Shown piece after piece: positions 5,800-40,476 of a DNA stretch of 40,476 nt. Each line of letters starts with the position of its first letter. Position 1 is the stretch's first letter. This DNA is from Candidatus Aenigmatarchaeota archaeon (GTDB taxonomy: Archaea > Aenigmatarchaeota > Aenigmatarchaeia > Aenigmatarchaeales > JACQIB01). Location of the stretch: positions 1 to 40,476 of the forward strand of contig JAWABM010000004.1 in NCBI GenBank assembly GCA_038999215.1. The letters are read 5' to 3'. A program made the translations under genes and the position numbers. The notes under the pieces were generated by a model. That model was not told where the DNA came from, ran no database searches, and worked only from the letters and a program-made list of their open reading frames with translations.

Positions 5800-5869
5800 A
5801 ATCATTTTTATGCTCGAATTTCATCCGCATTCGCGCCACCGGCTGCGACGGTGAAGCGAATGAGCAGAA

Positions 5870-6199: not shown

Positions 6200-6250
6200 C
6201 AAATCACTTTCACATATCATATTCCGACTACTATTTAAATTATGCTGTTT

Positions 6251-6703: not shown

Positions 6704-6732
6704 AAAATCACTTCTTCAAACATGTTAATAAA

Positions 6733-7317: not shown

Positions 7318-7323
7318 CGCAAA

Positions 7324-7584: not shown

Positions 7585-7609
7585 GTAAATCACTTGATGA
7601 GCACTCTAT

Positions 7610-7903: not shown

Positions 7904-7937
7904 AAGACCATCCGAAGAATTTTGGAAAGAAAAGGAT

Positions 7938-9225: not shown

Positions 9226-9250
9226 GCAAAATCTTTCTGAAAGAAGCAAT

Positions 9251-10027
9251 TTAAACCTTGCCGAAGACCTGCGCAAGCGCATCCATATAGTCGAAAATCC
9301 GCAGGTAATCCAAAAACGAATAGAAAAGCGGTATCAGCAGGAGCATTATGAGGATGAGCAGCAGGACCATAACGCTCCTTTTTGCGCCCTCCTCCCTGAA
9401 GCCGAAAAACGCGCCGCTGAGCAGCCCGCCTATGTGGGCGGCATAAGCCACCTCGGTCTCCACGCCTGTCGCCACCATGGCTATGAACGCGCCGACATTG
9501 TAGAGCGTGTAGATGAGAGCAACCATTATGAGCGGCACCGGTATGATATAGGGGTAAAACACCATCTCGAAAGGCTTCACTAGCATCGCCGTCCCCATGA
9601 GTCCGAATATCGCGGCGGAGGCGCCTATGGTCGGCACGCCGGCCGGCATGATCCCCAGGAGCGTGCAGGCGGCAACAGCGGCGGTGCCGACGAAGGCGGA
9701 CGTGAAGAAGATGAGGAGGAACTTCGCCTTGCCCATGTTCTCCTCTATGACGCTGCCGAAAAAGAACAGTGCGATGAGATTGAGGACGAGATGGTCGGGG
9801 CTCGCATGCAGGAATATCGACGTCACGGGCGTCCAGAACTTGCCGTCAAGAAAGGACGAGAGGCTGAAACCGTAATCGTGGAACAGCTGGCTCATGGCGG
9901 CCGAACCGTAGGTCATGGAATAGAGCAATTCAAAGACGTACGCTGCAAGGCAAAGAAGCATCAGCGAATAGGTGAGCTTGCGGCCCCCGGGCTTTCTTTC
10001 GCGCCTAAGACCCTTGAACGCGGGCAT
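9251..10027 (-). CDS. Rhomboid-family intramembrane serine protease
   Basis: WTPVTSIFLHA..HLVLN, IGASAAIFG (catalytic Ser), AAHIGG (catalytic His). Confidence 0.93.
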   Translation of the reverse strand: MPAFKGLRRERKPGGRKLTYSLMLLCLAAYVFELLYSMTYGSAAMSQLFHDYGFSLSSFLDGKFWTPVTSIFLHASPDHLVLNLIALFFFGSVIEENMGKAKFLLIFFTSAFVGTAAVAACTLLGIMPAGVPTIGASAAIFGLMGTAMLVKPFEMVFYPYIIPVPLIMVALIYTLYNVGAFIAMVATGVETEVAYAAHIGGLLSGAFFGFREEGAKRSVMVLLLILIMLLLIPLFYSFLDYLRIFDYMDALAQVFGKV

Positions 10028-19587: not shown

Positions 19588-21321
19588 ATGGCCAAAGACT
19601 ACGTGATACTGGGACTGAAGAACGCGCAGAAAAGGGCTGCGAAAAGAAGGAAGGGCTACATGCTGCTCGGAGCGGCTGGCGCAATGGTCACAGGAGCAAT
19701 CCTTCTTGCCGAGAAGGAAGCGATAGAAAAAGCGCTCGAAGGCGGGCATGCGGACCTGCCGGAGCACAGCCTGTTCGTGGACCATGACACAGGCTACCTT
19801 GTCAACGAGACGGGCGCACCACACACGATGAAGGACGGCTCGAAGATAAAGTTCGACAATGCAACCGGCGAATACGATATAGAGGGCAAGGACGGCAAGG
19901 AGAAGGCGATAGACGCCGACGACCTGCACAATTATCTTGAAAAGAAGGAGGGCATAGACTTCAACATACTGCCGTACGAGATGGTCGAAGCGCCCGCTGG
20001 CAACGGCCAGGGGACAGCGGACCCGGTGTACCAGTATGAGATGAGCATACCGCACTCCCAGATGCCGAGCTTCGTGAAGCACATGACAGGAAAGAACTTC
20101 GACAGGTTCGCGGGCAAGGAGAAGTCGGGGAGCGGCAAGATAACGGTCAAATACGACCCCGAGACCAAGCTGTTCCGTGGAGACATCATGATTGACGGCG
20201 CGGCAGTTTATGAAAACATCATTGTGGGCTCCGACGAGGGCCTCGAAGGCTTCGAGCACAGCGTGCTCGGAGAGGCGCATGATCACCTTGAGGACGGGAA
20301 GGACGGGGACCACGGCTACAAGCCCTACCTGAAGGAGTTCGTGCACAAGTCGACCATAGACCACATGTCGCACAAGCTCAACGCCGCGAACGAGAAGATA
20401 ACCGAGTATGAGCACATGCTGGATGCGGCCGACAAGGAGGCCGACAACTTCAAGGACGGCAACTGGACAGACATACCAGACAGGATAAAGGAGGCCAACG
20501 AATACATCAAAACGCTCGAAAGCTACCTCAACGACGCCGACAAAGAAGCTGATAAGTACGCCAGCGGCAACTGGTCTGACCTTGACGACAGGATACACGA
20601 CATGCTTGATGAACTCGACAGAATGAAGGACCACATCAAGACGCTTGACGAGAAGTACACGCAGAACTGGAACATGGAGAAGGACCTGTTCGGGCAGGTC
20701 TACGAGCGCCTGACGCCTGAAGAGCAGAAGACACTGCAGGACCAGGGATTCAACATCGGCCTGATGGACGACAACGAAACCAACGGCGAAATGATGAGCG
20801 GAAATGTCCAGATAATCCCGACACAGGACCATTCGTTCGTCTATCTGCAGAAGTCTGACGGTCAGACAATAACGCTCAATGTTTCAAGGGCGCTCGGCGA
20901 GAAGATGGCCAGGACCGCTTACGACTTGAAGGGGACCGATGTGGACCACCACTACGGCTACACGCCGGCGTACCTTTCGGGCCTGGACAGCCACGAGGCC
21001 TTCGTAAAGGCGTGGGAAACTGCAAAGAAAAACCACTGGCACAAGACAATATACAAAACCGACGACGAAGGACAAGAGAACGAAACAGGGGCCATGGACT
21101 TTTACAACCTGCACAGAGGAAGAGGCGTAACGGAATTCGACCAGTTCTCCGAAGCGTGGGAGAACGACAAGATACACTATATCGAGATAGTGGACACAGG
21201 CGACGACGCCGTGAACGGCGGCTATGTCGTGGCCTATGACAAGAACCACAAGATGATGCCGAACACCGCAATATCGATAGATCACATGGAGAGCATAAGG
21301 GAATACTTCCAGGGCAAGTGA
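19588..21321 (+). CDS. Hypothetical N-terminally anchored His/Asp-rich protein with 36-aa tandem repeat
   Basis: ATG 19588, 1 nt after the upstream stop; basic KRAAKRRKG followed by one hydrophobic helix. Confidence 0.82.
   Translation: MAKDYVILGLKNAQKRAAKRRKGYMLLGAAGAMVTGAILLAEKEAIEKALEGGHADLPEHSLFVDHDTGYLVNETGAPHTMKDGSKIKFDNATGEYDIEGKDGKEKAIDADDLHNYLEKKEGIDFNILPYEMVEAPAGNGQGTADPVYQYEMSIPHSQMPSFVKHMTGKNFDRFAGKEKSGSGKITVKYDPETKLFRGDIMIDGAAVYENIIVGSDEGLEGFEHSVLGEAHDHLEDGKDGDHGYKPYLKEFVHKSTIDHMSHKLNAANEKITEYEHMLDAADKEADNFKDGNWTDIPDRIKEANEYIKTLESYLNDADKEADKYASGNWSDLDDRIHDMLDELDRMKDHIKTLDEKYTQNWNMEKDLFGQVYERLTPEEQKTLQDQGFNIGLMDDNETNGEMMSGNVQIIPTQDHSFVYLQKSDGQTITLNVSRALGEKMARTAYDLKGTDVDHHYGYTPAYLSGLDSHEAFVKAWETAKKNHWHKTIYKTDDEGQENETGAMDFYNLHRGRGVTEFDQFSEAWENDKIHYIEIVDTGDDAVNGGYVVAYDKNHKMMPNTAISIDHMESIREYFQGK
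20386..20601 (+). repeat. Two diverged 108-nt (36-aa) tandem repeats
   Basis: ANEKITEYEHMLDAADKEADNFKDGNWTDIPDRIKE / ANEYIKTLESYLNDADKEADKYASGNWSDLDDRIHD. Confidence 0.85.
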
Positions 21322-24300
21322 TGATGATGAAAGGTCTCAAGGGGTTGCAGGAGAAGCTGGTTTCGGTGTCGATACTGGTAGCCGTGCTGCTCGCTGCGCT
21401 GCCGGTCCTTGCCGTCGACTCTCACCTTGTCAAGTTCAGGGTGTACGACTACGGTACGGACAAAGACGTCTATTCGGCGTACATGCTCGTCAAGGACTCC
21501 GGTGGAAGCGTGATCAAGGGCCCAGTCTACGGAAAGAAGAGCTGGTCCTGGGACATAAGCAACGGGAACGACTACAAGGTCGTCGTGTACAATAACTCCT
21601 ACAACCTTTTCGAATACACTTTCGACCTCACGGCAGGCATGAGCAGCAACGTGACGTACGATGTTGGCCTTGAGGCCGACAAGAGCGCTCCAAAGACCGC
21701 AGCGACGGCAAGCGCGTCCGACTGGACGAACCAGAATGTGCAGATAACGCTCAGCTGCAGCGACCCGGCGACGAACAGCAACGCCTTCAACGAGGCCGGC
21801 ACTGGCTCTGGCTGCGACAAGACCTATTACAAGATAGGAAACGGCAACTGGGACACCTACAGCTCCGCATTCTCGGTTCAGGCAGAAGGCACAAGCACGG
21901 TCTCATATTACTCCGCTGACAACGCCACAAACACCGAGCAAACCAAGACGCTGACCGTCAAGATAGACAAGACAGCGCCTTCGACCGCGATAAGCCTCAG
22001 CCCGGCGAACCCGGACGGCAAGAACGGATGGTATGTGTCGGAGGTCACCGTGACGCTCACGTGCAGCGATTCGCTGTCCGGATGCGACAAGACCTACTAC
22101 AGGGTGGACGGCGGCATAGAAAAGGAGTATAGCGCTCCGTTCAAGATATCAGCTGACGGCCAGCACACTATCGATTATCGCTCAAAGGACAAGGTCGGCA
22201 ACATTGAGAACTGGCACATACAGAGCGGAATAAACATCGACATGACAAATCCGCAGGCCTCAAATGAGAACGCCAACCCGGCAAGCCCCGCCGAATACTC
22301 GCAGGAAGGAACGTACACGTTCAGCATGGATTGGAACGACGCGCTGTCAGGCGTCGACACAGTGAAATTCATTTTCAACGGAAAGGAATATTCGCCCACG
22401 GCGGCAGATTCCACGTACTCCTACCAGATGACAGACCTTGCTGTAGGCATCTACAAGTACAAGTGGACGGCGACGGACAAGGCCGGAAGCAAGGCTGAGA
22501 CCGCCGAGAAGACATACACAATAAGCAAGGCAAATCCGGCAGCCTACATGCACCTTGCGCTCGAGGGCAGCGAAGGCAATGCCACAGCGACATACCCAGC
22601 CACGACCAACGCAACCGGCTGGCACAGCTTCGCGAATGCCCAGGACCTCACGTTCAAGCTGCTCAGGGACGATGTACAGGTCGGCACAGGCAGCCCAGCG
22701 ACTGAAAGCATGGAGCTTGCGGCCGGGAAGTACAAGTATACTTATCACACCGACGGTGGAGCAAACTACACAGCAGGAGACATAACGTTCTATCTGGCAG
22801 TGAACAAAGGAACGCCCACCGGTTCGGTCATTTTCGCAAGCAACCCGATAGACTACGGGACAGCTGCGGGCGTCACATGCTCAGCAAGCAACGGCCTCGG
22901 CTACACGCTGTACAGGAACGGCACGGCAGTGGGTCAGTCGGACAGCACGGTGCTCGCCGCAGGCTCCTACAATTACACGTGCGTTGTGGACGGCAACCAG
23001 AACTACACAGCCGCGACCGCAGAAGGCACGCTCGTTGTCAATAGGATAGCTCCGACGATACACCTGGCGATAAACGGCAATGAGGCGGACGGAAGCCAGG
23101 ACTACAAGGCGTCGGGCCTGAACATAACCGGCTGGATAGAGAAAGGCGAGGGCGCGGCGAAGCTGTACCTTGACGGGACAGAAGTGAGCAATCCCTACTC
23201 GAGCGCTGGCCTGGCAGCAGGCAAATATGAGGTCAATTACACTTATGCGCAATCGGAAAACTACACAGAATTCACAGTGACGAGGACCCTTACCATAAAC
23301 AAGATAGCGCCCAAGCTCAAGCTCGAGCTGAACGGCATCGAAGGGGATGTAAACGTCAACTACCTTGATCCGCTTAACATCACGGGAAGCGTAATCGAAG
23401 GAGACAGCGGGGCAACGGCAACGCTCTACAGGGACGGCGCATCTGTGGCCAACCCCGACACCGCGGCTCTCGGCGGAGGCAACTACAAGTACGAGTTCAA
23501 CTACACGGCATCGGAAAACTACACCGACGCCTCGGTATCGCACACTCTCATAATCAACAAGATCGGAAACCCCGTATGGATGCTGCTCAACGGGAACGCG
23601 GCTGACGCCGACCTTGTATACGAGGATAAGCTGAACGTCACTGCCGGAGCGGCAGCCGGAACAGTAAGCGTCTTCAGGAACGGGACCGACGTCACGAGCG
23701 AACTCGGCACTGACGTAGTGCTCGCAGCTGGCGACTATGTTTACTTCGTGAACGCCACAGGAAACGAGAACTACACGGACAACGCAACTGGAATGACATT
23801 CAATGTGCACGTCGGCAAGAAGGCCACGACAATGAGGCTCTGGCTGAACGGCACGGAAGGCAACAGGACGTACGCCATCAACGACATGGCGAACTTCACT
23901 GCGGCGCTCGACGTCGCTGGGAAGGTTATAGTACTCAACTACTGCAGCGGAGGCCAGGTGGCCGCTAGCCCGATAGAGGCCAGCGTGAAGCTCGATGAGG
24001 AAAGAGACTATGAAATCAAGGCCTACTGGGACGGGGATGAGAACTACACTGGCAGCTCCGTGACCTATTGGGCAAAGGTTCCCGACACGACAGCTCCGAC
24101 AATAACCGTTGTCAGCCCGACGAACACTACCTATCAGACCAACACAATATGGGCAAACGCGACAATGGATGACGACGGCGGCTGGATGAAAGTGAACGTT
24201 GACGGAACGAACTACAGCCTTACGAACGACACGGGCAGCTGGAACCGCCTGATGACGCTCGCGATTGGCGTGCACACTGCCAAGTTCTATGCCGCTGACG

Positions 24301-26213
24301 AGGCGGGCAACGAGAACGCCAGCGACGTGATAACGTTCACGATACCCTGCCTGAGCCACATAGTGAACACCACGGTGGACGGCACGTACTACGCGGACAG
24401 CTGGCTGAACATCAACGCGTCCAGCGTGATAACATGCTCTGCGGTAAGCCACTCCGTCATAAGGACGAGCACGATAATCAATTCAACGGTGATAAGGAAG
24501 GACCTCACGAACATGTACATAGAGGAATCGTACGTCGACCCGAACTACACGATACCGTCGGAGAACTCGGTGATAAAGGGCAACTCCAACATCGACACAT
24601 CATCGATAAGGAACTCGACAGTCGAGGACCACTCGAATGTCACGTACTCCGAAGTCGTGAACTCGACGGTAAGCGCATCGAACGTCCACTGGTCCGACAT
24701 ATGGTACAGCTACATACTCAGGTCCACAGTGAAGTATTCCTGGATAGAGAACTCCAACGTGACCGACTCTTACGTAGAGAACAGCACCGTGAAGAACTCG
24801 AACGTGATAAACAGCACGATACTGTTCTCATGGATAGAGAACATGACCGTCATAAACGCCTACATAGACCACGACTACATGTACAACGGAACCATCACCT
24901 ACAACGGGACCAACTACACGACCCCGACGAATCTGACCGAACTGTACAAGAACGCGGACAATGAGGCGCCAATGATAGGCACCATAACGTTCTCCAACAG
25001 CACGCCGGCGCCGGGAGACACTGTGAACGTGACCATAACGGCCACTGACAACGTCGCGGTTGCCAGCGTGACCTTCAACGGAACAGCCTTCACGTACGTT
25101 CCGAACACATACACGACATGGGTCGGAGCCTACGCGATACCGTCTGCTGACGGGACGTACAGCTTCGACGCGGTAGCGACTGACTACGCGGGCAACCAGG
25201 GCAACAGGACCGTCTGGATAATTGTCAACAACTCAAGCACGCCGCAGGTCGAGATAGACGCCAACCCGCCGGTTGTCGGAACGATAAGCCCGACAGCGAT
25301 AACAATAGGAAGCCCGCAGACCCTGTCGGCGGCCGTCTCAGACGACACCGGCGTGGTCAGCTGCCAGCTCTACATCGACAACGTCCTCATAGGAAGCATG
25401 AGCGGAACCCCGGTCAAGAGCGGAACTGTGGCATACCTTCACAATTTCACCGCAACCGGAACATACAAGGCCTTCGCAAGCTGCACTGACAAGGCGAACA
25501 GGACAACGAACGGAACAGCTGTTGACATCGTAGTAAGCGAGCCTGTGATACCGCCGGGATGGGGCGGAGGACCGGGAACAGGCCTGCCGTTCTCGATAGC
25601 ATCGGGCGCAATGAGGATATCGGTGCCCGTCAAAATGGCGGCGGACGCCGGGAAGGCCGTGACGTTCACGGTCGACGTGGAAAACACCGGAAAGATGACG
25701 CTGACCGGAGTCGTGATATCCGTTTCGGGCGTGCCCGATGAATGGGTGACGGTAACGCCTGACAAGAACGACATAGCTCCGAACAGAACAGCGACCTACA
25801 CCGTCGTTATAAGCGTGCCTTCGAACGAACCGACAGGAAGGAAGGACATCGTGATAAAGGCCAGAAGCGCAGAGAACTACGCAGCCGAAGCAGGCACATC
25901 GCTGGAGATAATCAACCCCAACACCGCATGCAGCTGCCCGGCGCCCTCGGACTGGAACGACTGCGTGAACGGCGAGCAGACCAGGACAAACTACCTGTGC
26001 GACGTGACAACAGGCTGGATATGCAAGGAGTTCGAGGAGAAAAGGGCCTGCACCGTGCAGGGACCCGGCGGGATAACCGGTGCTGTCCTCGGGTTCATAG
26101 GCAACCCGACATCGCTCGGAATATCCATAATCGTCCTGATAGTGGCAGGATACGCCATCTGGTCGATGAGAAAAGGCAAGGCGCCAAAGGCAAAAGAAAA
26201 GCTAGGGATCTAA
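21318..26213 (+). CDS. Large cell-surface glycoprotein (Ig-like repeats, beta-solenoid, NEW3-like domain, C-terminal TM anchor)
   Basis: Signal peptide, DxxAP domain boundaries, paired SGCDKTYY domains, LAAGxY...NYT repeats, many N-x-S/T sequons, GITGAV + TM + basic tail. Start is GTG 21318 or ATG 21321-21327. Confidence 0.9.
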   Translation: MMMMKGLKGLQEKLVSVSILVAVLLAALPVLAVDSHLVKFRVYDYGTDKDVYSAYMLVKDSGGSVIKGPVYGKKSWSWDISNGNDYKVVVYNNSYNLFEYTFDLTAGMSSNVTYDVGLEADKSAPKTAATASASDWTNQNVQITLSCSDPATNSNAFNEAGTGSGCDKTYYKIGNGNWDTYSSAFSVQAEGTSTVSYYSADNATNTEQTKTLTVKIDKTAPSTAISLSPANPDGKNGWYVSEVTVTLTCSDSLSGCDKTYYRVDGGIEKEYSAPFKISADGQHTIDYRSKDKVGNIENWHIQSGINIDMTNPQASNENANPASPAEYSQEGTYTFSMDWNDALSGVDTVKFIFNGKEYSPTAADSTYSYQMTDLAVGIYKYKWTATDKAGSKAETAEKTYTISKANPAAYMHLALEGSEGNATATYPATTNATGWHSFANAQDLTFKLLRDDVQVGTGSPATESMELAAGKYKYTYHTDGGANYTAGDITFYLAVNKGTPTGSVIFASNPIDYGTAAGVTCSASNGLGYTLYRNGTAVGQSDSTVLAAGSYNYTCVVDGNQNYTAATAEGTLVVNRIAPTIHLAINGNEADGSQDYKASGLNITGWIEKGEGAAKLYLDGTEVSNPYSSAGLAAGKYEVNYTYAQSENYTEFTVTRTLTINKIAPKLKLELNGIEGDVNVNYLDPLNITGSVIEGDSGATATLYRDGASVANPDTAALGGGNYKYEFNYTASENYTDASVSHTLIINKIGNPVWMLLNGNAADADLVYEDKLNVTAGAAAGTVSVFRNGTDVTSELGTDVVLAAGDYVYFVNATGNENYTDNATGMTFNVHVGKKATTMRLWLNGTEGNRTYAINDMANFTAALDVAGKVIVLNYCSGGQVAASPIEASVKLDEERDYEIKAYWDGDENYTGSSVTYWAKVPDTTAPTITVVSPTNTTYQTNTIWANATMDDDGGWMKVNVDGTNYSLTNDTGSWNRLMTLAIGVHTAKFYAADEAGNENASDVITFTIPCLSHIVNTTVDGTYYADSWLNINASSVITCSAVSHSVIRTSTIINSTVIRKDLTNMYIEESYVDPNYTIPSENSVIKGNSNIDTSSIRNSTVEDHSNVTYSEVVNSTVSASNVHWSDIWYSYILRSTVKYSWIENSNVTDSYVENSTVKNSNVINSTILFSWIENMTVINAYIDHDYMYNGTITYNGTNYTTPTNLTELYKNADNEAPMIGTITFSNSTPAPGDTVNVTITATDNVAVASVTFNGTAFTYVPNTYTTWVGAYAIPSADGTYSFDAVATDYAGNQGNRTVWIIVNNSSTPQVEIDANPPVVGTISPTAITIGSPQTLSAAVSDDTGVVSCQLYIDNVLIGSMSGTPVKSGTVAYLHNFTATGTYKAFASCTDKANRTTNGTAVDIVVSEPVIPPGWGGGPGTGLPFSIASGAMRISVPVKMAADAGKAVTFTVDVENTGKMTLTGVVISVSGVPDEWVTVTPDKNDIAPNRTATYTVVISVPSNEPTGRKDIVIKARSAENYAAEAGTSLEIINPNTACSCPAPSDWNDCVNGEQTRTNYLCDVTTGWICKEFEEKRACTVQGPGGITGAVLGFIGNPTSLGISIIVLIVAGYAIWSMRKGKAPKAKEKLGI

Positions 26214-29837: not shown

Positions 29838-32414
29838 ATGGGGGACCGATTGGCGCTGGAAACGCCCGCGGACATAAGATCAAAAATCTCGGAGCTCAGC
29901 AGAAAACTGGCGGACGTGGACGAAAGACTGTCGGAAGTTTACAGGGAAGGCGCGGGCTCCGCGCTCTTCGAGCTGAAAGCCACCGAAAAGCTTAGGAAGG
30001 AGATGAAGAAATCCCTCCTGGACCTGAAGGAGAAGCTGGATAGAATCGATTATTCGAAGGGCGACAGGGAAACTCTGCAGAAGGTGCAGAAGTCGGTAGA
30101 ACGCTTGGATAGAAAACTCAGCGGACTGGACGGATCGAAGAAATGGATGGAAAGTGCCATCAAGGATGTGGGCGAGGCGAAAGCCGACGTGGAGTCGATG
30201 CTGAAGGGCCTCAGGAAGGAATTTGATTCCGATTCTCAGGAATTCAAGCTGATGAACAAGAAGCTCCGCTCCGCTGTCGACGAGATTGAAAGGAAAATAC
30301 GCGGAATGGAGAGGTTTCCGAAGGAAATGGAGCAGATGCTGGAGAAGCAGGATTACAACTTCAGGGAGAAGATCGAATTCATAAACTCCGCCGTAAACGG
30401 CCTCAACAAGAAGCTGTTCGACGCAGCCGCCGACTTCGACAACAAGTTCGCCCGCAAGGAAGAGATAGAAAATATGGGAAAGAACCTGAACGATGTCAAG
30501 GAATGCATAGGCAGCCTCGGCAAGAACCTGGAAATAACCAAGGCTCTCGCGGAGGAGGTGAGGGAAAACAAGGCCAGGCTCGAGGAGGCAAGCAATGCCA
30601 TCAAGGCGCTAGCGAACTGGAGCGCCTCCGTCGAAGGCAACATAAGCGGGGCCATAAAAGGGATAGAAAACAACCAGGAGATGGTGGCCAAGCTCGTCAA
30701 CCGGATCGAACAAATAAAGCCGACTGACCAGAAGGAAATCGACAGGCTGGCTGACAAGATAAGGGACATCGATTCAAAATTGTCCGGAATAAGGATACCG
30801 GACAACTCCGATGAAATAAAGGAGCTCGAAAAGAAGCTCGCGGGCCTCGAGGGCAGGCTCGCTGCCGCGCCCCGCGACAATACGGAGGAGCTCGAGGGCA
30901 TAAGGAAGAAGCTCAGGGAGGTTGAGAACCTGTTCTTCTCGTTCTCGGTGCCGAACCATACCGAGGACATAACGATACTGAAGCAGAAGGTGAGGGGGCT
31001 GGAAACCGCCGTCTCGTCTCTGCCCGACAGCTCCGACAGCTTATATGACATTGAAAGGAAGATAGGCGGGATAGAGAAGGCGCTGAAATCGCTGGAGGAA
31101 TCCGCTTCGGCCAAGCTTGACGGGCTGAAGAAGGAGACCGGCGATGCCGCAAAATCGCTGAGGCAGGAAATGGACATAAACAAGGAGGTGCTCAAGAACT
31201 TCCACACAAGGCTCTCGCAGAGCGAGGTCGGGATGGTCAGGGCCGAAGAGGCGCTCAGGAACATAGAGGCGCTTGTGAGCAGGATAGAGAGCGGACTCAA
31301 CAACAGGAGCGGCATAGACGGGCTCAGGCAGGAGCTCGACAGGAAGATCGGCGAGATAGAGGACAGGCTGGCAGAACTCTCAAATACGGCAAGGCTGGAC
31401 GAGCTCGAGAAGAAGTTCGACGAGCTGGACGGGATACCGGACCTTCCGGACGACCTCGTAAGAAGGCCGGAACTCGACGAGCTGGAGATGAGGTCCAAAT
31501 GGGAGACAGCGAAGCAGATAGAGGAGCGCGTCGCCGATGAGAAGATGAGGCTGGAAAGGCAGATAGACGCGCTCAGGAGCAGGGCGGACGAGCTGTCTGC
31601 CAGAATGGACTTCTCGGCCGCAACGGAGCCGCTGGCAAGAAAGGTGGACGAGGTCAAGGAGAAGATGCAGGCGGAGATAGCGGGCTTCAAGGACAGCCTC
31701 TCGATACTCGAGAGCAGGAACCAGGTGATGTTTGCGGAGCTGAAAAAGCTCTCCGAGAAGGCAGACGGCACGGAGAGGATCAATTCGCTGCAAAACAGGA
31801 TGGAGAACGTGGAGTTCGGGAAGAGCTTACTGGAGAAGAAGGTGGCGGAGCTTGCGGACAGGATGGCCAAGAAGGCGGACAACGACAACGTGTCATCCTT
31901 CGTGGACGGAAAAATCAAGGAAATCGAAGCCAAGATACCCTCGGACTTTGTGACAAAGAAGGACGTGGAGGTCGCAATGGCCGAGATGGCCAGCAGCATG
32001 AGCCACTCCGGCCACTTCGAGGACATAGAGAAGAGGCTAGGGGCGGTCGAAAAGAGCGTGGCCGAACTGTCGATGCTAGGGCCCTCCTTGGACAGCCTCA
32101 GGGCGACCGTGAGCAGCTTGAGCAAGCATGTTGCTGAAATGCCAAAGAATTTAACCTTTGGAGACGAAATCCAACCTGTGAAGGACGGGCTGCTGCAGCT
32201 CGGCGAGATACAGGGCCAGATAGCCGGCCTACAGCGGGAGCTGGCGGGGCTGAAAGGCAGGATGAGCGATGCGGATGCGCACGCGAGGATAGACAGCATC
32301 GAGGAGCAGCTTTCCGGCATCAAGGCGGGCGAAAGCGAGCCGCTGAGGGACATAATAAAGGCGCTCGACGACAAGCTGTACAGGGCGCTGAAAAGAAATT
32401 ACGATTCGGGGTGA
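29838..32414 (+). CDS. Long coiled-coil protein (858 aa), no ATPase or TM motifs
   Basis: Heptad-like E/K/L/I pattern throughout, with Pro-punctuated segments. Confidence 0.85.
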   Translation: MGDRLALETPADIRSKISELSRKLADVDERLSEVYREGAGSALFELKATEKLRKEMKKSLLDLKEKLDRIDYSKGDRETLQKVQKSVERLDRKLSGLDGSKKWMESAIKDVGEAKADVESMLKGLRKEFDSDSQEFKLMNKKLRSAVDEIERKIRGMERFPKEMEQMLEKQDYNFREKIEFINSAVNGLNKKLFDAAADFDNKFARKEEIENMGKNLNDVKECIGSLGKNLEITKALAEEVRENKARLEEASNAIKALANWSASVEGNISGAIKGIENNQEMVAKLVNRIEQIKPTDQKEIDRLADKIRDIDSKLSGIRIPDNSDEIKELEKKLAGLEGRLAAAPRDNTEELEGIRKKLREVENLFFSFSVPNHTEDITILKQKVRGLETAVSSLPDSSDSLYDIERKIGGIEKALKSLEESASAKLDGLKKETGDAAKSLRQEMDINKEVLKNFHTRLSQSEVGMVRAEEALRNIEALVSRIESGLNNRSGIDGLRQELDRKIGEIEDRLAELSNTARLDELEKKFDELDGIPDLPDDLVRRPELDELEMRSKWETAKQIEERVADEKMRLERQIDALRSRADELSARMDFSAATEPLARKVDEVKEKMQAEIAGFKDSLSILESRNQVMFAELKKLSEKADGTERINSLQNRMENVEFGKSLLEKKVAELADRMAKKADNDNVSSFVDGKIKEIEAKIPSDFVTKKDVEVAMAEMASSMSHSGHFEDIEKRLGAVEKSVAELSMLGPSLDSLRATVSSLSKHVAEMPKNLTFGDEIQPVKDGLLQLGEIQGQIAGLQRELAGLKGRMSDADAHARIDSIEEQLSGIKAGESEPLRDIIKALDDKLYRALKRNYDSG

Positions 32415-32419
32415 GATGA

Positions 32420-33004
32420 GTGGACATGCTCATTCAAATCATGTCGCTGATGTCCCTGCTCATAGGGATATTCATCGGCGAGATGGTGACGCTCAGGGCG
32501 TTCGGCAAGCCAAAACCGAAGGCCATGATAGCCGACATGTTCATATTCGTCGTCGTGCTGGTGATAATGTTTAACTTCATCTCCTTCACAACGCTCGGCT
32601 ACCTCTACTATCTTGTCAACTTCGTGGTCGGCGTGCTGTCCATAGTGATGGTCAGGGGCATAGAGACCGGGATAAAACTGACGGAGCGGCCGAAGGAAGG
32701 GGACAAGATAGCGGTCAACATAGTGCGCTCGCTCAGCAGGTACGGCCTGGACGACAACGAGATAAAGGGCGTGCTGAAGCGCTCTGGCATCTCGCCCAAG
32801 ACAGTGGACCAGTTGCAGGACCTAATCGAAAAGAACGTGCCGCACTACGTGCCAAAACTTGTGAAGATAGAGTCCGACCTCGAAGAGATAAAGGCCGGCA
32901 TAGCCCAGATAGGCGCCGACCTGACCAAGCTCAGGATGAACGAGCTCGTCCATCTGAAGAAGGACATCGCGCGCATGAAGGGCAGGAAGAAAAGAAAGAA
33001 GTAA
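32420..33004 (+). CDS. Hypothetical membrane protein (3 TM + cytoplasmic helical/coiled-coil tail)
   Basis: Three hydrophobic N-terminal helices, then IVRSLSRYGLDDNEIKGVL and a short coiled coil; GTG 32420 or ATG 32426. Confidence 0.8.
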   Translation: MDMLIQIMSLMSLLIGIFIGEMVTLRAFGKPKPKAMIADMFIFVVVLVIMFNFISFTTLGYLYYLVNFVVGVLSIVMVRGIETGIKLTERPKEGDKIAVNIVRSLSRYGLDDNEIKGVLKRSGISPKTVDQLQDLIEKNVPHYVPKLVKIESDLEEIKAGIAQIGADLTKLRMNELVHLKKDIARMKGRKKRKK

Positions 33005-33442
33005 TCAGCCTATTGCCTTGTCCCTTTTGTTAAGACCCCTCACCTTTTCTTCATACTCATCCATTATCTTCTTATACTCATGCTCGACTTCTTCGACGGA
33101 TTGAAACCCAACAATGTCCTCGTATATCTGGTTGAATTCCAGCAGAATCTTGGGCACGATTATATTGAACTTTTTAATCAGATTATCCATGTTGATTTTC
33201 TTGCCCATCAGCTTGGACGCTTGATAGATAGAGACTAATCTTACAACATAATCCGGAACTTCAGGCAGTTCTTTTTTTTCAACGATCTGCATCAAAACAG
33301 TGAAAAAATCTTTAATGAATTCTTTTGTCTTTCCTCTTATTCGCAATTCTTCACAATCAAGTTCAACAATTCTCCTATGACTTATAAAAATAGGTGTTCT
33401 CCTTACAAGCGATGCACCCTTGAACGCCCCCTTTTTTTCCAT
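33005..33442 (-). CDS. AT-rich hypothetical protein, candidate immunity or orphan module
   Basis: ATG 33442 lies 24 nt after CTTAAA; directly downstream of the toxin-like gene and shares its low GC. Confidence 0.7.
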   Translation of the reverse strand: MEKKGAFKGASLVRRTPIFISHRRIVELDCEELRIRGKTKEFIKDFFTVLMQIVEKKELPEVPDYVVRLVSIYQASKLMGKKINMDNLIKKFNIIVPKILLEFNQIYEDIVGFQSVEEVEHEYKKIMDEYEEKVRGLNKRDKAIG

Positions 33443-33478
33443 ATAGAATATGAAATTTAGAACATATTTAAGCATTTT

Positions 33479-35626
33479 TTACGGAAGCTCTATTTCCCTG
33501 TTAGCTTTAATCGTTATCCTGTCCATTTTAGTTGCGAAATCGACAAAATCTGTATTTGTTACCTTGTTATTTCCCATTAGAGGAAGGATTTTCTGCGATT
33601 CTTCCGCATATCCGTTTCCTATAACCTCCACTTTCTTCAATAATTCATCTTTCTTTGTCAAATCGTCCAATTTAGAAAGAAGATCATCGGTGTTTACACC
33701 GTGATTTTTTAGTGCAGCATAATCCTTTGCCAAAATTTTGACATCAGGTTCTATCACTTTATTTTCTATCATTTTCAAGTGCGAATTCGCCAATGAAACG
33801 GCATCGTTTTTGCTCAATCTGGAATCAACCAAAAGATCTTCGGCGATCCTAATCATATCATCAGCCTCAGCTTCGGTCATCCCCGTATTTTTAATCAGAT
33901 TTTTAGAAATAAAGTCTTTATTATAACCGTACATGAATGTCTTGTCGTCAATCAGATGTTGGGCCTCATGTCTGATAAGCGCGTTTGGATTGTGAAACTT
34001 GAGCAAATTGGAATTCATTTCAACTTCCTTCGTGACAGCATCAACCCTTGCAGGCGTAAGGGCATCATCGCCCGTGAATTCTTTCACTATAACCTTTTTG
34101 ACCCCACCATCCTCAATTTTTCCGATTGTTATCGCGTCATTGTCTATGCTCTTCAGCGCGTTTATCGAGGTCTGCGGATTGGTGACCTTGCCCTCGACTG
34201 TGGCGGTTATCTTCAGCCTGGAGAGGTCCTCGATCTGGGCCTTGCTGAGGCTCTTCTCCATCAGCACGACCTCTTCGGCGTGGAACTTGTTCATGACAGT
34301 GGCGGAATAGGGCTTTATCTTGCCCGTCTCCAGCGCAACCACCCTTTCGACTTCGCTTGTCTTCAGGCCCATGTTCTCCAGCTCCGCGACCCTCTGCACC
34401 CCGCCGTCGGTCTTTATCGCCATCCTTATGACATCGTCGCTATAGCCCCGGGACTTGAGGAGCGTTGCGCCCAGCTCGACGCCGCCGCTGCTGCTCTTGG
34501 CGAGCATCGTGGCGACCGGCCTGAGCACCGCGCCGGCTCCGTAGCCTGCCGCTGTAAGCGCGACCATCGGCCCCTTGTCCGCTATAACCATTTGAGCAGC
34601 ATCCCAGCCGCCTTCCTGATAGGCCGTGCCGACGTCGGACGCGAACACCGTGCCCAAGGCGACATCGGACGCGATGAACAGGCCTGTGCCTATGCTGCCC
34701 AGGGTAGCGCCAGCAGAGCTCGCGCCTATTGCGCCGAGGCCTATAGTGCCTGCAGCTGCGAAGTCGGCCAAGAGGCCCACGCCCGTGAACGCCAATGCGA
34801 CCATGCCGACAATTGCAATTGTCTCGTACGGATGCTTCGCCACCCAGTTGCCCACCGCGCAGGCGCCGTTCCAAACAGCTTTCCCTGCTGCTGCGGCACC
34901 GTTCAGAATGGCATTACCGACCTTCATCTGCATGTCAATCGCCTTCTTGCCGATGTCAAGGACAGCCGAACCGACCTGCTTGGCGACCTGTATGCCTGAG
35001 GAAACAACCTTTGATATGGCATTGCCTACCGAAGAGGCCGCCTTGGAAACGGCATTGGCAGCTGCAGAGACCACCTTAGAAGCGGCATTAGCGGCCGTAG
35101 ACGCGGCCGAGAAAACGCCTTTGGCGACGGTTTTTGCGGCATTTACTGCCGCACCTGCAACACTCTCCGCCGTATTGACGATAGCGTTGACAGCCGAGGA
35201 GACCGCAGACGAGACGGTCCTTGCAATGGAAGAGACTGCGCTCGATACGGCCGAGACAGCTGACGACACCACGCTCGTGACCGTCTTGACAGCCGAGGAG
35301 ACCGCGCTGGACACCGTGCTTATCGCGCTCCCGGCGGCATTCATTATCGCGGAAAAAAACTTATGGTAGGTCTTCTGTTCGCCTTGGGCATACATCTGCT
35401 TGAGCTCGTTCCAGCTGACCTTCGTAAGGTATTTCTTTCCGGCATAGGCGAAAACTACAGGAATTCCGATAGCCGCAGCGATTTCCGCGGGGACAACGAG
35501 CTCATGGGTGCCGCTGCCCCCCTCGCCCTCGAACGGCAGCGCCAGTGTGGCACAGCCGAAGAAAAGAACGAAGGATAAGCCTGACAGTAATACCCTCGCA
35601 TACAGAACCTGTGCGCCCCCCACCAT
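33479..35626 (-). CDS. Polymorphic-toxin-like membrane protein with C-terminal HExxH (zincin-like) domain
   Basis: Hydrophobic N-terminus, Ser/Ala/Val amphipathic repeats, GNWVAKHP + Gly/Ala-rich hydrophobic segment, AT-rich C-terminus with LIRHEAQH...AEDLLVD. Start uncertain (35626 or 35674). Confidence 0.7.
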   Translation of the reverse strand: MVGGAQVLYARVLLSGLSFVLFFGCATLALPFEGEGGSGTHELVVPAEIAAAIGIPVVFAYAGKKYLTKVSWNELKQMYAQGEQKTYHKFFSAIMNAAGSAISTVSSAVSSAVKTVTSVVSSAVSAVSSAVSSIARTVSSAVSSAVNAIVNTAESVAGAAVNAAKTVAKGVFSAASTAANAASKVVSAAANAVSKAASSVGNAISKVVSSGIQVAKQVGSAVLDIGKKAIDMQMKVGNAILNGAAAAGKAVWNGACAVGNWVAKHPYETIAIVGMVALAFTGVGLLADFAAAGTIGLGAIGASSAGATLGSIGTGLFIASDVALGTVFASDVGTAYQEGGWDAAQMVIADKGPMVALTAAGYGAGAVLRPVATMLAKSSSGGVELGATLLKSRGYSDDVIRMAIKTDGGVQRVAELENMGLKTSEVERVVALETGKIKPYSATVMNKFHAEEVVLMEKSLSKAQIEDLSRLKITATVEGKVTNPQTSINALKSIDNDAITIGKIEDGGVKKVIVKEFTGDDALTPARVDAVTKEVEMNSNLLKFHNPNALIRHEAQHLIDDKTFMYGYNKDFISKNLIKNTGMTEAEADDMIRIAEDLLVDSRLSKNDAVSLANSHLKMIENKVIEPDVKILAKDYAALKNHGVNTDDLLSKLDDLTKKDELLKKVEVIGNGYAEESQKILPLMGNNKVTNTDFVDFATKMDRITIKANREIELP
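35020..35335 (-). repeat. Low-complexity amphipathic VSSAVS/AANAVS repeats (about 11-aa period)
   Basis: ISTVSSAVSSAVKTVTSVVSSAVSAVSSAVSSIARTVSSAVSSAVNAI...AANAASKVVSAAANAVSKAASSVGNA. Confidence 0.75.
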
Positions 35627-35749: not shown

Positions 35750-38700
35750 ATGCACCGTGAGGGGTGGCGTTCACAATGCGCAGCAGCGCTATTCTTATCG
35801 AGCATAATCTTTCTAATGCTCGCACCGACTGCGATGGCGGGAAGCTGGTGGGACACAGGCTGGCGCTACAGTAAGGAAATATCATTCGACATCTCAAACT
35901 CATCGGGGATCGCAAAGACAGAACTGGTGCATTTCAACGTAACGCTCGAGCCTAACACCACGATGAACTGCTCGAAGGAGCTGAGGCTGACCGTAAGGGG
36001 AGGCTGGTGCGATCAGAACAACACGTGCAAGCCGACGCTAGACGAGTGGAGAAGGAAAGAAATAACATGGGTCAAAAGCGGCAAGCAGAACAATGATCAG
36101 TACTGGAAATATTACATAACGAACTCCGAACCTGAAGGTTGGAAGAGCACAAGCTTGGACGATTCGGGTTGGAATCAGGGCAAAACGCCAATAGGAGACC
36201 ACAACGGCTACAGGACGCCGTGGGATCAGGACAGCTCCTCCGTGCTCGTAAGAAACAGCACGATACTGAACATAAGCAGCCTATCTAAGGTGGTATCGGC
36301 AATACTCAAGGTCTCATCGGACGAGCAAGCAGGCTGCTGGCTGAACGAGGAGAGTATATTCTTCGACTTCGGCGGAGGCCACCCGGACTCCAACTGGAAC
36401 TACGTCTACAACATCGCGCCAAGGCTCAACCTTACTGGAAAGAACACGCTCGCATGCAAGGTCTATAATATCAACGGCGAGCAGTATTTCGACGCCGAAA
36501 TAACGCTAATAGTCAACGAATGGCAGAACACTACGGCGCTGACATACGACCCGGACGCGCTGGAAAACGAAGTGCCTCTCAGGGTCGACGGCGAAGCCTA
36601 CAGCGGCGGCTACTGCGTGGCCGCGAACCTCACTGCGGAGGTGCAGATATACGAGGAGCTCGGGCCGAACCTGGCTCTGGGCAAGAGCACCCTGTGCTCC
36701 GGTGCCTACAGCAGCATCTACAACTGCAGCAGGATAAACGACGATTCCTACAAGGAGGAGTACAACAACACGAACCAAACGTACGATTTCTGGATGCTGC
36801 CGAACAGCCAGACGGGATGGGCAAGGCTGAACCTCAGCAACAACATGACCATAAACAGGATAAGATGGATGAACTACCATGACGGGGACAGCTATGACGC
36901 GTACACGACCAACTGGGCCGTGAAAACATCGATGTCCAACGACACCGGCTATTCGAACGTGCAGAGCGGCGTCGCTTCCTACAAGGATTCATACTTCTGG
37001 ACTGACATCTCGTTCCCCAGCAGAACCGCGCAGTACGTGCAGTTCGACGTCAACGGATACAGCACGAGGGGAGGGCTGACCGAACTGCAGGTGTACAACG
37101 CCGAGATCGGTACAAGGAACTACAGGCTCTACTACGGAAACCCTTCAGCGAACAAAACAGAATTAAGGTTCGACAGCCTCATCGCAACTGTCAGGAACGG
37201 CAATCCTTCCCATGTCAACTTTACAGAGGACTACGGCAACGGGACGTTCAAGAATGTCATGACAAACATAGACAACATAAGCAGCTCCACAAGGAGCGTG
37301 GGAGTCGCGGATTTCGACAATGACGGCGACCTGGACATAATCGCGGCCGACGGAAGCTGCAACATGTACATGTACCTCAACAACGGGTCAAACGTTTTCA
37401 ATGACAGGGCAAGCCTCGGCTCGTTCGGCTGCAACGGCGCCCCGAACGACATAGCAATCGGCGACTTCAACGGCGATGGGAAGACCGATTTCGTCACGAG
37501 CAGCGACCAGTACAACTACATCTACTACTGGGAGAACCACGGCAACTTCATGTTCACATCGAACAGCATGCCGGCCGCCGACTGGTGGAACAGCTGGGCC
37601 AAATTATGCGGCCAGGATGACAGGTTTTTGAGCTATCCAAGAGGAAAAGGCGCGGCGGATTTCGATAACGATGGGGACCTTGACGTAATGGTATTGATAG
37701 AGAATTACGGCAATTCCAACGGCCGCAGCTGCATGTTATTCGCGCTCTATAAGAACGATGGGAAGGGCAGCTTCACAAAGGAATACGTTTCGCCGAATTA
37801 CGGATCCGGAAGCAATATGGACTCGCACAACCTGATTGTCGGGGAATTCACCGGCGACGGCAACGCGGATTTCATATTCGAGAACGGAGTAAACAACGGC
37901 GCAGGCAACAATGGCATCCTCTATCTTGTGAACGGATATGGCAATGGCACGTTCAACACGTCATACAGCGAGGTCACAAGACTCGGCGAGAGAAGCGGAG
38001 GTGACGCCTACGACTTCGACTTCGACGGGAAACAGGACCTCATAGTCGTGAACTACACTGATGCGTTGCAGAACGGCACAATACATTATTACAGGGGCCT
38101 GGGAAACTGGAGCTTCATCGGACCATACAACACCACGAACTTCACGAGGTCCCTGGCGATAGGCGGACCTCACTTCATGGAAAGCCGGAGCAACGTAACG
38201 ACCGGGCCAATCAGAAGAATGACGGTCGAAGGTACGGCAGACGCCCTATCGAACGGGTCGATTATAATAAATTATCAGGGCGAGAACTGGACAGTGCCGG
38301 CGCGCTGGGAATGGGAGTGGAACCAGACCGACATGATGATAGCCGGCGAGGAGTACGCCCATCACAGGAAAATCTATTATAACACATCGTTCAATTTCAC
38401 GGAACAGCCCTATTTCAACATAACAGGCTGGGTCGTGAACGGCAGCGCGCTTTGGAACGGCGCGAACTTCAGCGGCAATCTTACGCAGCCTATACTGCTC
38501 AATGAGACCACCATCGCCGCAAAAGGCAACGACACGCTCTGGGACGAGGGCATGCCAAAAGGCATACCTGTTGGCAAAGCGTCGATAGGCAGAAGGCAGG
38601 ACAGCGCATTCACGACGACCGTCAACGGGAACGCTTACATAATCCAATACTTCAACATAACGAACAACGCCTCGTCGCTCCCGGCCAATTTCACCAATAT

Positions 38701-40476
38701 CATCGTTAAGGAGGGCTGCAACGCCAACTGGACCTGCACGGGCTTCTCGAAGATAATCGACAGCGCAGAGACAACGACAGGCTGGAGCTATGACAACGAC
38801 GCGAACCCGCCGGCAACAGGCGGTCTCAGGAGGGTCGACAGCTACTCGCTGAACTTCAGCTGGGAGAACAACGACCCGACAACGGTCGTGGCAAAGAACT
38901 TCAAGTCCTCGGCGAACCTGGGCAACCTCACGGACTTCCAGAACGGCAACATGAGCATGTGGGTATTCGTCGACAGCTATGCGAGCTTCGACAGCATCAA
39001 GGTGATCATAGGAAGCGATGAGAGCAACAAGAAGGGCTGGAGAAGGCTCAATACGACATTCAGCAACGGCTGGAACTACCTTATCATAGACCTGAACTCC
39101 ACGCCGTCCTCGAGCTCAGGCACGATAAACTGGACAAACATCAACTATCTGGAGTTCACAATAGAGGGTACTTCTTACGGACCAGACTTCATACTCATTG
39201 ATGATTGGAGGATATGGAACCTCGGAACAAAGGAGATCAGGATAGCTTCCTTGAACACGAACGAGGCGAAACTGGAATACGGGCTCGCGAAAAACAGCAA
39301 CGTGATAGCAACCGTGACCGAAGGCTCGAATGACTGGCGGCAAGACACATCCAAGACGACAACAGCCGGGGGCACGGCATACATAGAGGGTAATCTAAAA
39401 ATTAACAATACGGACACCATAAAATACGAGAATGTCACGCTCCTCGCGAACCAGTCTGGCCTGTCGCGCATAAATTGGAACTGCTACCATGCTGGCCGCG
39501 AGATCTACTACATACTTACAACAAACACATCTTCCGATTACCCCATAAAGTGCAGCAAGAACGCAGTAGTGACAAAGAGCGAAGGCCCATGGCAGCAGAG
39601 CGGGACAGCGACGCTTAACTCGCAAACAATCAACAAGTCCGTGGCTGTAGAGAACACCGACCCAGCCGTATCGTACAACAACATCGCATGGTCCGTAAAC
39701 CAGGAGAGCGCCTGCGGCTGGTCAAGCTCAACGCTTGGCGGAACAACGAACCTGGCGGCGAACGGTTCGGCTGTCCTCGAGGCCAGGCAGAGCGGGGACT
39801 GCGTCGTGAACGTTCAATCAAGCTGGAAGCAATACATGGTCGTCGAATCCGACGAGACAGGGCAGTACATACACCAGAACCTCACGATAATAAACAACGC
39901 AAACACCGGCATGAACCTGACGCTCTATGCGAGCGATTTCAGCAATCCTACCAATGCTTTCACGCCCGTAGGGCCTTACTCTGATCCGTCGGACTACAAC
40001 AGCCCCGTAGCGATAGGCGCAAGCCAAACAGCCGTCAAGAGGCAGGTCAGGAGCGGCGACGTGCTGACGCAGACGAACGGCGCAGCATCCGAAGGCCAGA
40101 CGTACGAGCGCCTGGTGAACGTCACATGCTCGGACGCATGCGACAAGCTGTCCTATGTCAAGATCAGCGCGGGAGTGAACGACACCAACTACACTGACTT
40201 CAAGATCTACCGCAAGAACGGCGGCATCTGGAGCTTCATGGCGACACCGTCTGTCTCAAGCGGGACAGCCACGTGGTATGCCACCGCATTCGGCGCCGTC
40301 GAGGAATACAAAATATGGGGAAACAGCACAGGCGTGCAGCCTCCTCAGCCAGCACCGGAAACTCCCTCTGTGAACATCATGAGCCCGAACAGCCAGACCT
40401 ATTCGACAGGCTCAATATGGGCCAACGTGACCACAAACATAAGCGTTGAATCATGCGCATATTCGCTGAACGGCAG
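35750..40476 (+). CDS. Giant secreted adhesin-like glycoprotein (>1570 aa; 3'-truncated; absent from ORF track)
   Basis: Hand translation from ATG 35750: MHREGWRSQCAAALFLSSIIFLMLAPTAMA signal, then GSWWDTGWRY (DUF2341-like), jelly-roll domain, NLALGKS...LTELQVY (F5/8C-like), five FG-GAP motifs (e.g. ADFDNDGDLD, GDFNGDGKTD). Same frame confirmed at 37301 and 40322. Confidence 0.9.
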   Translation, partial: MHREGWRSQCAAALFLSSIIFLMLAPTAMAGSWWDTGWRYSKEISFDISNSSGIAKTELVHFNVTLEPNTTMNCSKELRLTVRGGWCDQNNTCKPTLDEWRRKEITWVKSGKQNNDQYWKYYITNSEPEGWKSTSLDDSGWNQGKTPIGDHNGYRTPWDQDSSSVLVRNSTILNISSLSKVVSAILKVSSDEQAGCWLNEESIFFDFGGGHPDSNWNYVYNIAPRLNLTGKNTLACKVYNINGEQYFDAEITLIVNEWQNTTALTYDPDALENEVPLRVDGEAYSGGYCVAANLTAEVQIYEELGPNLALGKSTLCSGAYSSIYNCSRINDDSYKEEYNNTNQTYDFWMLPNSQTGWARLNLSNNMTINRIRWMNYHDGDSYDAYTTNWAVKTSMSNDTGYSNVQSGVASYKDSYFWTDISFPSRTAQYVQFDVNGYSTRGGLTELQVYNAEIGTRNYRLYYGNPSANKTELRFDSLIATVRNGNPSHVNFTEDYGNGTFKNVMTNIDNISSSTRSVGVADFDNDGDLDIIAADGSCNMYMYLNNGSNVFNDRASLGSFGCNGAPNDIAIGDFNGDGKTDFVTSSDQYNYIYYWENHGNFMFTSNSMPAADWWNSWAKLCGQDDRFLSYPRGKGAADFDNDGDLDVMVLIENYGNSNGRSCMLFALYKNDGKGSFTKEYVSPNYGSGSNMDSHNLIVGEFTGDGNADFIFENGVNNGAGNNGILYLVNGYGNGTFNTSYSEVTRLGERSGGDAYDFDFDGKQDLIVVNYTDALQNGTIHYYRGLGNWSFIGPYNTTNFTRSLAIGGPHFMESRSNVTTGPIRRMTVEGTADALSNGSIIINYQGENWTVPARWEWEWNQTDMMIAGEEYAHHRKIYYNTSFNFTEQPYFNITGWVVNGSALWNGANFSGNLTQPILLNETTIAAKGNDTLWDEGMPKGIPVGKASIGRRQDSAFTTTVNGNAYIIQYFNITNNASSLPANFTNIIVKEGCNANWTCTGFSKIIDSAETTTGWSYDNDANPPATGGLRRVDSYSLNFSWENNDPTTVVAKNFKSSANLGNLTDFQNGNMSMWVFVDSYASFDSIKVIIGSDESNKKGWRRLNTTFSNGWNYLIIDLNSTPSSSSGTINWTNINYLEFTIEGTSYGPDFILIDDWRIWNLGTKEIRIASLNTNEAKLEYGLAKNSNVIATVTEGSNDWRQDTSKTTTAGGTAYIEGNLKINNTDTIKYENVTLLANQSGLSRINWNCYHAGREIYYILTTNTSSDYPIKCSKNAVVTKSEGPWQQSGTATLNSQTINKSVAVENTDPAVSYNNIAWSVNQESACGWSSSTLGGTTNLAANGSAVLEARQSGDCVVNVQSSWKQYMVVESDETGQYIHQNLTIINNANTGMNLTLYASDFSNPTNAFTPVGPYSDPSDYNSPVAIGASQTAVKRQVRSGDVLTQTNGAASEGQTYERLVNVTCSDACDKLSYVKISAGVNDTNYTDFKIYRKNGGIWSFMATPSVSSGTATWYATAFGAVEEYKIWGNSTGVQPPQPAPETPSVNIMSPNSQTYSTGSIWANVTTNISVESCAYSLNG

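Follow-up and report, generated by a model that had tools for sequence, protein, structure and literature searches.

The window analysed here, 40,476 nucleotides of contig JAWABM010000004.1 from a Candidatus Aenigmatarchaeota archaeon (assembly GCA_038999215.1), carries a two-gene locus that, on sequence and structure models, is read with a probability of about 0.55 as a polymorphic-toxin-like module of protease and immunity protein. The large gene, P0001, would encode a membrane-placed trunk ending in a zinc-protease tip, and the small gene behind it, P0002 (the partner), a protein with a predicted cyclin/TFIIB fold, which is what is new in this analysis. Little is settled about the means by which DPANN archaea attack or manipulate their hosts and rivals, and predicted archaeal polymorphic toxins are presented as lacking experimental characterisation in a 2021 paper (PMC8416519). 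The source genome, that of a DPANN archaeon (G000; 571 kb in 24 contigs, 88% complete; the window is its contig C4), has a single copy of P0001. Two close homologs were available for comparison: that of a relative of the same genus (G160), whose homologous locus lies on a contig of 11,762 bases (G160:C24), and P0004, known from its protein only and without DNA context. The features of the locus are as follows.

33479 to 35626, minus strand: large gene P0001, 715 residues, with a signal-like N-terminus, amphipathic repeats, a Gly-rich hydrophobic region and a predicted zincin C-terminus.
35540 to 35626, minus strand: likely cleaved signal peptide, residues 1-29, from hydropathy and conservation, the cleavage site being placed by eye and not by a predictor.
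35438 to 35503, minus strand: second hydrophobic segment, residues 42-63, followed by basic residues; present in 3/3 homologs, likely a membrane anchor.
34847 to 35335, minus strand: 11-residue (3-11 helix) amphipathic Ser/Ala/Val/Thr repeats, residues ~98-260, differing in length among homologs.
34478 to 34846, minus strand: most conserved part, residues 261-383, with a W..HP[YW]E..ALTG[VI]G motif, common to cassettes of the distant relative G173, and a Gly/Ala hydrophobic stretch.
34120 to 34150, no strand: step in GC content at third codon positions (GC3) and putative crossover, whose best position, following codon 498 (~34132), lies within the predicted zincin domain.
33956 to 33970, minus strand: HEAQH zinc motif, residues 553-557, invariant in 3/3 homologs, on the helix that follows three beta strands in the model.
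33824 to 33844, minus strand: AEDLLVD helix, residues 595-601, with E596 invariant.
33005 to 33475, minus strand: partner gene P0002, 156 residues, AT-rich (GC3 0.43), predicted as a single cyclin-box/TFIIB-repeat fold with a C-terminal helix.

The open reading frame (ORF), the HEAQH motif and the AEDLLVD helix were already placed correctly in an earlier, sequence-only reading of the same DNA. That reading had also described the trunk as unfamiliar, and indeed P0001 has no Pfam or NCBIfam family above its cut-off and no RHS, WXG100, Hint or filamentous haemagglutinin domain was found in it. The likely signal peptide has a hydrophobic core and an A-x-A-like site ahead of a conserved PF..E.GSG stretch and, together with the anchor segment, would place the trunk in the membrane. 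In the repeats, identity autocorrelation has maxima at spacings of 11 (0.38) and 22 (0.33) and hydrophobic periodicity is maximal at 98-99 degrees, the signature of a 3-11 amphipathic helix. All of these trunk elements, from the signal-like and anchor segments through the repeats to the conserved hydrophobic block, recur in 3/3 homologs, with no named trunk family to which they belong.

The composition of P0001 changes abruptly within the gene. GC3 is 0.72 before and 0.41 after codon 498, with a change-point log-likelihood gain of 30.2 (maximum in 5000 permutations, 9.8), and the fall is present at 4-fold (0.87 to 0.43) as well as 2-fold sites (0.80 to 0.33), so it is not explained by amino-acid composition. 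An abrupt fall inside the gene that continues through the next one had been proposed from four counts of G+C per 60 nucleotides (41, 33, 24 and 17), all of which reproduce exactly, and the AT-rich tract does span the partner ORF, stopping at its stop codon, where it abuts that of the convergent gene. The claim that the tip is foreign in composition also holds at the level of the genome, where the median GC3 is 0.73 (423 mechanically called ORFs); the step in P0001 is the third largest among the 204 ORFs of at least 300 codons, and of the eight largest it alone has GC3 falling towards the 3' end. It lies directly past an invariant LKxIDxD patch, near residue 115 of the structure model, and structural alignments with Wss1 and PPEP-2 begin at model residue 88-89, so that the step falls inside the predicted protease domain; this points to allele exchange, and not to a domain swap, among close relatives.

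A trunk search returned the two homologs among 8000 scored candidates (393-1252 residues), and a profile of the C-terminal half matched the same two only, among 1.84 billion representatives; the trunk searches used profiles without P0004 and were hence less sensitive than possible. Both homologs align end to end with P0001 and keep HEAQH and an ED...DSR helix. Collinear full-length homologs sharing one C-terminus, which the sequence-only reading had listed as evidence against itself, therefore exist at the level of the tip family, and its expectation of different tips and downstream genes on close trunks was not borne out: neither homolog departs from the tip family of P0001, and G160, for which DNA context exists, also has the same partner. 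The same collinearity bears on the suggestion that the gene is an assembly chimera joined near 34.1 kb, to which the sharp compositional step and the lack of any contig of sequencing run X1 crossing the junction would lend themselves. Two homologs from independent assemblies run across the junction in a single open frame, gene order in G160 is unchanged and its gene has a comparable step, and X1, perhaps the source sample, contains stretches nearly identical to parts of the trunk, the tip and the flanks, the contig depth being similar for trunk and for tip. A chimera is thus not indicated, and we consider it extremely improbable.

In G160 the gene order is that of G000, with an FG-GAP gene divergent upstream and membrane, coiled-coil, nitroreductase and ligase genes downstream, and the partner is homologous to P0002 (38% identity). 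The G160 gene also steps down in GC3, from 0.45 to 0.28. While trunk GC3 follows its own genome (0.65-0.84 in G000 vs 0.41-0.47 in G160), that of tip and partner is low in both (0.41/0.42 in G000, 0.28/0.27 in G160), and identity at 4-fold sites between the two genomes is near saturation (0.24-0.37 in four genes; 0.11 in the partner, from 9 sites). Since synonymous sites are nearly saturated and the trunk sits at its genome's GC3 while tip and partner do not, the G000 tip was likely acquired after the two lineages split. The low GC3 common to tip and partner and the homologous partner in G160 bear out the proposal that the small gene travelled with the tip. P0001 and P0004 are 60-78% identical in the non-repeat trunk blocks and 41% identical in the tip, the tips of all three proteins being about equidistant (41, 41 and 44%). 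Free branch lengths fit better than proportional scaling of trunk and tip (twice the log-likelihood difference 11.9, 2 degrees of freedom, p ~0.003, computed by hand), and site patterns differ between trunk and tip (Fisher p 0.004). The tip has thus likely been replaced by an allele of the same family, and a crossover by homologous recombination within the domain, near the LKxIDxD patch, is inferred. The notion of an exchangeable tip is thereby supported as exchange of alleles within one family and not, among close relatives, as a swap of domains.

A different tip is found further away, in G173, a genome of another family of the same phylum. The trunk segment matched 4/371 phylum genomes at E<=0.01, namely G000, G160, G173 and, weakly, G128 (E 0.003), the last of which looked unrelated and was dropped. 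In G173 an ORF on contig C58 (238-1900) opens with the W..HP[YW]E..ALTGVG motif, closes with a different, HESGH-bearing domain unrelated to the tip of P0001 (probability 0.2), and is followed by an unrelated small gene. The motif aligns with P0001 at an hhalign probability of 94 (E 1.3e-7; 31 aligned columns), and local alignment scores of 111 and 105 stand against maxima of 85 and 67 in 2000 shuffles. Extending the trunk search beyond close relatives, as had been proposed, hence did recover an unrelated tip, but on a shared stretch of 31 columns only. Two trunk-like remnants lie on G173:C26 (665-829) and at the end of C62; C58 and C26 overlap by 55 bases, and C62 starts with a nucleotidyltransferase C-terminus, a 126-residue gene and a metallophosphoesterase. 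C26 also encodes, at 2531-12160, a secreted-looking ORF of more than 3210 residues that is cut off by the contig end and has internal repeats and a Pfam RelA_SpoT match (E 2e-7); its zincin region has no detectable relation to the P0001 tip. By its sequence this part of G173 looks like a cassette-type toxin locus, and across the three loci compared the small gene co-varies with the tip, G000 and G160 having the same tip family and the same partner and G173 a different tip and a different gene. By eye the giant protein has a second RelA/SpoT-like region as well as PD-(D/E)xK-like and HEVRH zincin-like regions, and ahead of the HESGH-tipped ORF, in its frame, lie a stop and an NTQNP motif, which the giant protein also contains (23-base DNA match).

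Among the seven genomes of the family the partner is present in two and the flanking membrane gene in four; in G092 and G121, from two other genera, this membrane gene is kept with other genes beside it and the module is absent there. Strong tip matches are confined to 2/371 phylum genomes. At E<=0.01 the tip profile reached 15, of which 13 were weak; the longest ORFs at these 13 loci looked unrelated to the tip and the loci were dropped, several of the ORFs resembling, by their motifs, NrdD or pyruvate phosphate dikinase. By this survey the module is accessory and, among the genomes searched, confined to one genus. Six further weak profile matches (A4) had E-values of 0.0015-0.0097. A DNA-pattern search found G160's contig and one weak Pilimelia match among genome contigs and no relatives among metagenome and viral contigs, and a search for the tip in longer proteins returned the query only, at a sensitivity so low that the two known homologs were missed. 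In G160 the partner is followed by three additional AT-rich ORFs (133, 113 and 94 residues; G160:C24 4861-5952) that carry no tips and are without counterpart in G000, the third being winged-helix-like; content downstream of the partner therefore varies. In both genomes the stop of the last AT-rich ORF abuts the same convergent stop codon. In the literature, no paper on such a locus was found by title or abstract start, the coverage not extending to the mBio paper of Makarova et al. (2019) on archaeal polymorphic toxins.

The AF2 model of residues 384-715, made from a three-row alignment, has a pLDDT of 90.9 and a pTM of 0.85 and runs from three strands through the HExxH helix to the Glu helix. 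By the gluzincin pattern (HExxH with a downstream Glu as third ligand), E596 is likely the third zinc ligand, both motifs being invariant and placed on helices in the model. Structure comparison with VIA matched the tip to Wss1 (Z 6.1, root-mean-square deviation 3.2 over 101 aligned residues), PPEP-2 (5.9), lugdulysin (5.8) and selecase (5.2); most top rows over the protease region are zincins, and M48/M56-like and secreted proteases also occur among the fold matches. The Foldseek rows below threshold include collagenases, leukotriene A4 hydrolase, selecase and ArdC, and weak matches in the Atlas and a viral library include metallopeptidase and polyvalent-protein entries. Neither the tip nor its homologs matched Tox-MPTase1-5 or the Pfam zincin families at E<=10, NCBIfam and PHROGs gave no such match either, and the tip has no PDB sequence match. 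The consistent reading of the models is a zincin without assignable family.

P0002 starts 3 nucleotides past the stop of P0001; the sequence-only reading had recognised the gene, and the start it gave, 33442, is Met12 of the ORF. In VIA its model matched cyclin C (Z 12.2), Brf1 (11.5), TFIIB (11.0) and Pyrococcus TFB (10.5), with deviations of 2.1-3.8 across ~100 residues, and 47/50 top rows are of cyclin, TFIIB, Rb or Orc6 type, the first unrelated row following at Z 5.2; helical folds can, by the tool's own caveat, reach such Z values. The Foldseek ranking is led by these families too, though with E-values above 0.4, and an independent Atlas model agrees (TM-score 0.62-0.67; feature match of 0.90 to a cluster with 12% PF00382). 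Mean pLDDT is 67.6, with 64-86 over residues 31-140. Collectively these results predict a five-helix cyclin-box fold. At the sequence level P0002 and the G160 partner are not among the PF00382 matches of the two genomes (E<=1), comparison of P0002 with six TFBs by hhalign gave a probability of 0.3, and its PDB sequence matches are at chance level. P0002 is a single repeat without Zn-ribbon and two separate full TFB genes lie elsewhere in G000; judged by sequence, it is distinct from the housekeeping TFB of the cell. Its role could be that of an immunity protein or of a substrate for the tip. Prediction of the tip-partner complex scored 0.17 (mark 0.32; controls not folded), which speaks neither for nor against an interaction. 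The idea, formed by eye, that ORF P0008 of G160 is a second TFB repeat had no profile support and was given up. Besides full-length TFBs, short TFB-like proteins (~195 residues, two cyclin repeats, by eye no Zn-ribbon) were seen in relatives, at G160:C4 1447-2037 and G121:C3 8014-8598.

Such a partner raises the question of whether the tip is a signalling protease. In the BlaR1-BlaI, IrrE-DdrO and ImmA-ImmR pairs a protease cleaves a regulator, and by the same logic a membrane-anchored P0001 could, when its trunk senses contact or membrane stress, cleave a TFB-like regulator with a tip held in the cytoplasm. The cyclin/TFIIB fold, the winged-helix ORF in the same AT-rich tract of G160, the basic residues after the anchor segment, the conservation of tip family and partner between G000 and G160, and the presence of selecase and M48/M56-like proteases among the fold matches are all in keeping with this. 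It leaves unexplained, however, the recent foreign replacement of tip and partner inside the gene and, in G173, the cassette-like relatives in which both tip and small gene are different, and the regulator would be a single repeat with no Zn-ribbon and no sequence signal to TFB; we regard signalling as rather unlikely. A bolder proposal, which we hold to be doubtful, is that the tip is a protease directed against the cyclin-fold TFB of host or rival archaea, stopping transcription initiation, and that the partner is a TFB-repeat decoy protecting the producer by substrate mimicry, both being renewed in an arms race with the target TFB. If true, the tip would be an effector by which a DPANN symbiont blocks transcription, and the partner would add a new fold to those of immunity proteins.

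Under the preferred reading of a protease-immunity module, the signal peptide and anchor would place the trunk in the membrane, and the 11/3 amphipathic helix of ~160 residues would, with the Gly-rich hydrophobic stretch, engage the membrane of a contacting cell. The zinc-protease tip would then act in the cytoplasm of that cell, while the cyclin/TFB-fold partner would serve in kin as its cognate inhibitor. Donors of lower GC would supply new alleles of tip and partner together, through homologous recombination at the LKxIDxD patch. The system would work like a polymorphic toxin system and is a candidate member of that class.

Several observations weigh against this reading. The tip family is identical in all three close proteins, so that no panel of tips on the exact trunk is seen; unrelated C-terminal domains on a related trunk occur only with the short G173 motif, and that link, mainly ~31 hydrophobic residues, may be generic. 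No orphan (standalone) toxin-immunity cassettes were found in the 88% of the genome represented in G000. The sequence-only call of a zincin tip held in its invariant HEAQH and Glu, in the model and in matches dominated by zincins, and not in their strength: Wss1 has the best zincin Z, no Foldseek match reached E<=0.001, and the top VIA row is an unrelated helical piece of GatDE (Z 6.4), with all values in a range that the tool calls common. We know of no immunity protein with a cyclin fold, and this fold fits a regulatory role equally well. The basic residues past the second hydrophobic segment could mean that the repeats, perhaps together with the tip, stay in the cytoplasm of the producer. 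As to allele replacement, p was 0.068 when site patterns were scanned for a breakpoint without constraint, faster evolution of the tip combined with saturation could imitate part of the discordance between trunk and tip, and GC step and partner are read from G000 and G160, P0004 entering the comparison as protein.

The genomic setting also admits an episymbiont protease that works at the surface or in attachment to the host and digests the host S-layer or peptides. The 3' end of its gene would have been overwritten by an AT-rich accessory segment of a relative, with the partner as a passenger. The signal-like N-terminus, the large secreted FG-GAP protein as divergent neighbour in both genomes, the secreted proteases among the fold matches, the further AT-rich islands of G000 and the conserved tip family would suit such an enzyme. 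A mere passenger does not account for the same partner behind the tip in both genomes with the same foreign composition, and conservation is higher in the Gly-rich hydrophobic stretch (66-78%) than in the catalytic domain (41%), which would be unusual for a housekeeping surface enzyme. This explanation, too, seems improbable to us.

The FG-GAP gene (35750-40474, plus strand), divergent from P0001 in G000 and G160, encodes a secreted-looking protein of more than 1575 residues, cut off by the contig end, that has a NedA-like domain besides its FG-GAP repeats and is possibly an adhesin. On the other side (29838-33004, plus strand) lie genes for an 858-residue coiled-coil protein and a 194-residue membrane protein, with no family assigned, which keep their synteny with the nitroreductase gene in both G160 and G092 (the coiled-coil protein there having only 183 residues), and at 21318-26213 (plus strand) a 1631-residue protein with several Ig-like domains (Big_13, Big_7, NEW3) is likely a surface protein. 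Elsewhere in G000, AT-rich islands (GC3 0.25-0.38) at contig ends (C8, 24.5-28.8 kb; C1, 60.5-63 kb) carry, by eye, protease-like, transporter-like, transposase-like and integrase-like ORFs; that on C8 may be foreign or mis-binned.

The locus offers a compact, clonable pair, a predicted protease of ~245 residues and a TFB-fold partner of 156, and leads on to another Aenigmatarchaeota genome, whose toxin locus is rich in cassettes and includes a multi-toxin-like protein of more than 3200 residues. Its closest parallels are the polymorphic toxins with zincin tips (Tox-MPTase1-5, Tox-HopH1), which likewise combine a trafficking-type N-terminus with a C-terminal HExxH zincin of Wss1-like predicted fold, the bacterial Tox-MPTase1-5 tips being described there as distantly Wss1-like (Zhang et al., 2012; PMC3482391). 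With polymorphic toxins in general the locus shares the small adjacent gene, the shift in composition at the tip and the cassette-like remnants in the relative G173. Unlike the zincin-tipped toxins it has no known trunk, no Pfam Tox-MPTase match and a cyclin-fold partner, and unlike polymorphic toxins its homologs exchange alleles of one tip family and G000 has no orphan cassettes. The tip model resembles zincins of the Wss1, PPEP and selecase types and gluzincins (PDB 5ln5, 6fpc, 4qhf) in its beta sheet, HExxH helix and Glu helix, but at 9-22% identity and Z 5-6 with no sequence match in the PDB. Similarly, the partner model has the five-helix cyclin box of the TFB/TFIIB/Brf1 repeat (PF00382; PDB 1ais, 6cnb, 1zp2) at Z 10.5-12.2, whereas archaeal TFB has two cyclin repeats in place of its single one, has a Zn-ribbon and is matched by PF00382. 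The 11-residue amphipathic repeats and hydrophobic segments recall phage tape-measure proteins, with PHROG matches across the repeats (E 3e-7 to 0.02) that are likely compositional; these proteins differ from P0001 with its signal-like start and catalytic tip, and no phage tail genes were found in the 13 proteins scanned and no viral relative. Finally, the VARTIG module of Thermococcales is an archaeal surface protein of unproven function whose C-terminal domain is hypervariable by recombination within one fold, with variable downstream genes and a layout like that of polymorphic toxin systems (PMC8416519). The present locus would share this mode of variation, and in place of a variable Ig domain it has, in a DPANN lineage, a predicted protease with a cyclin-fold partner.

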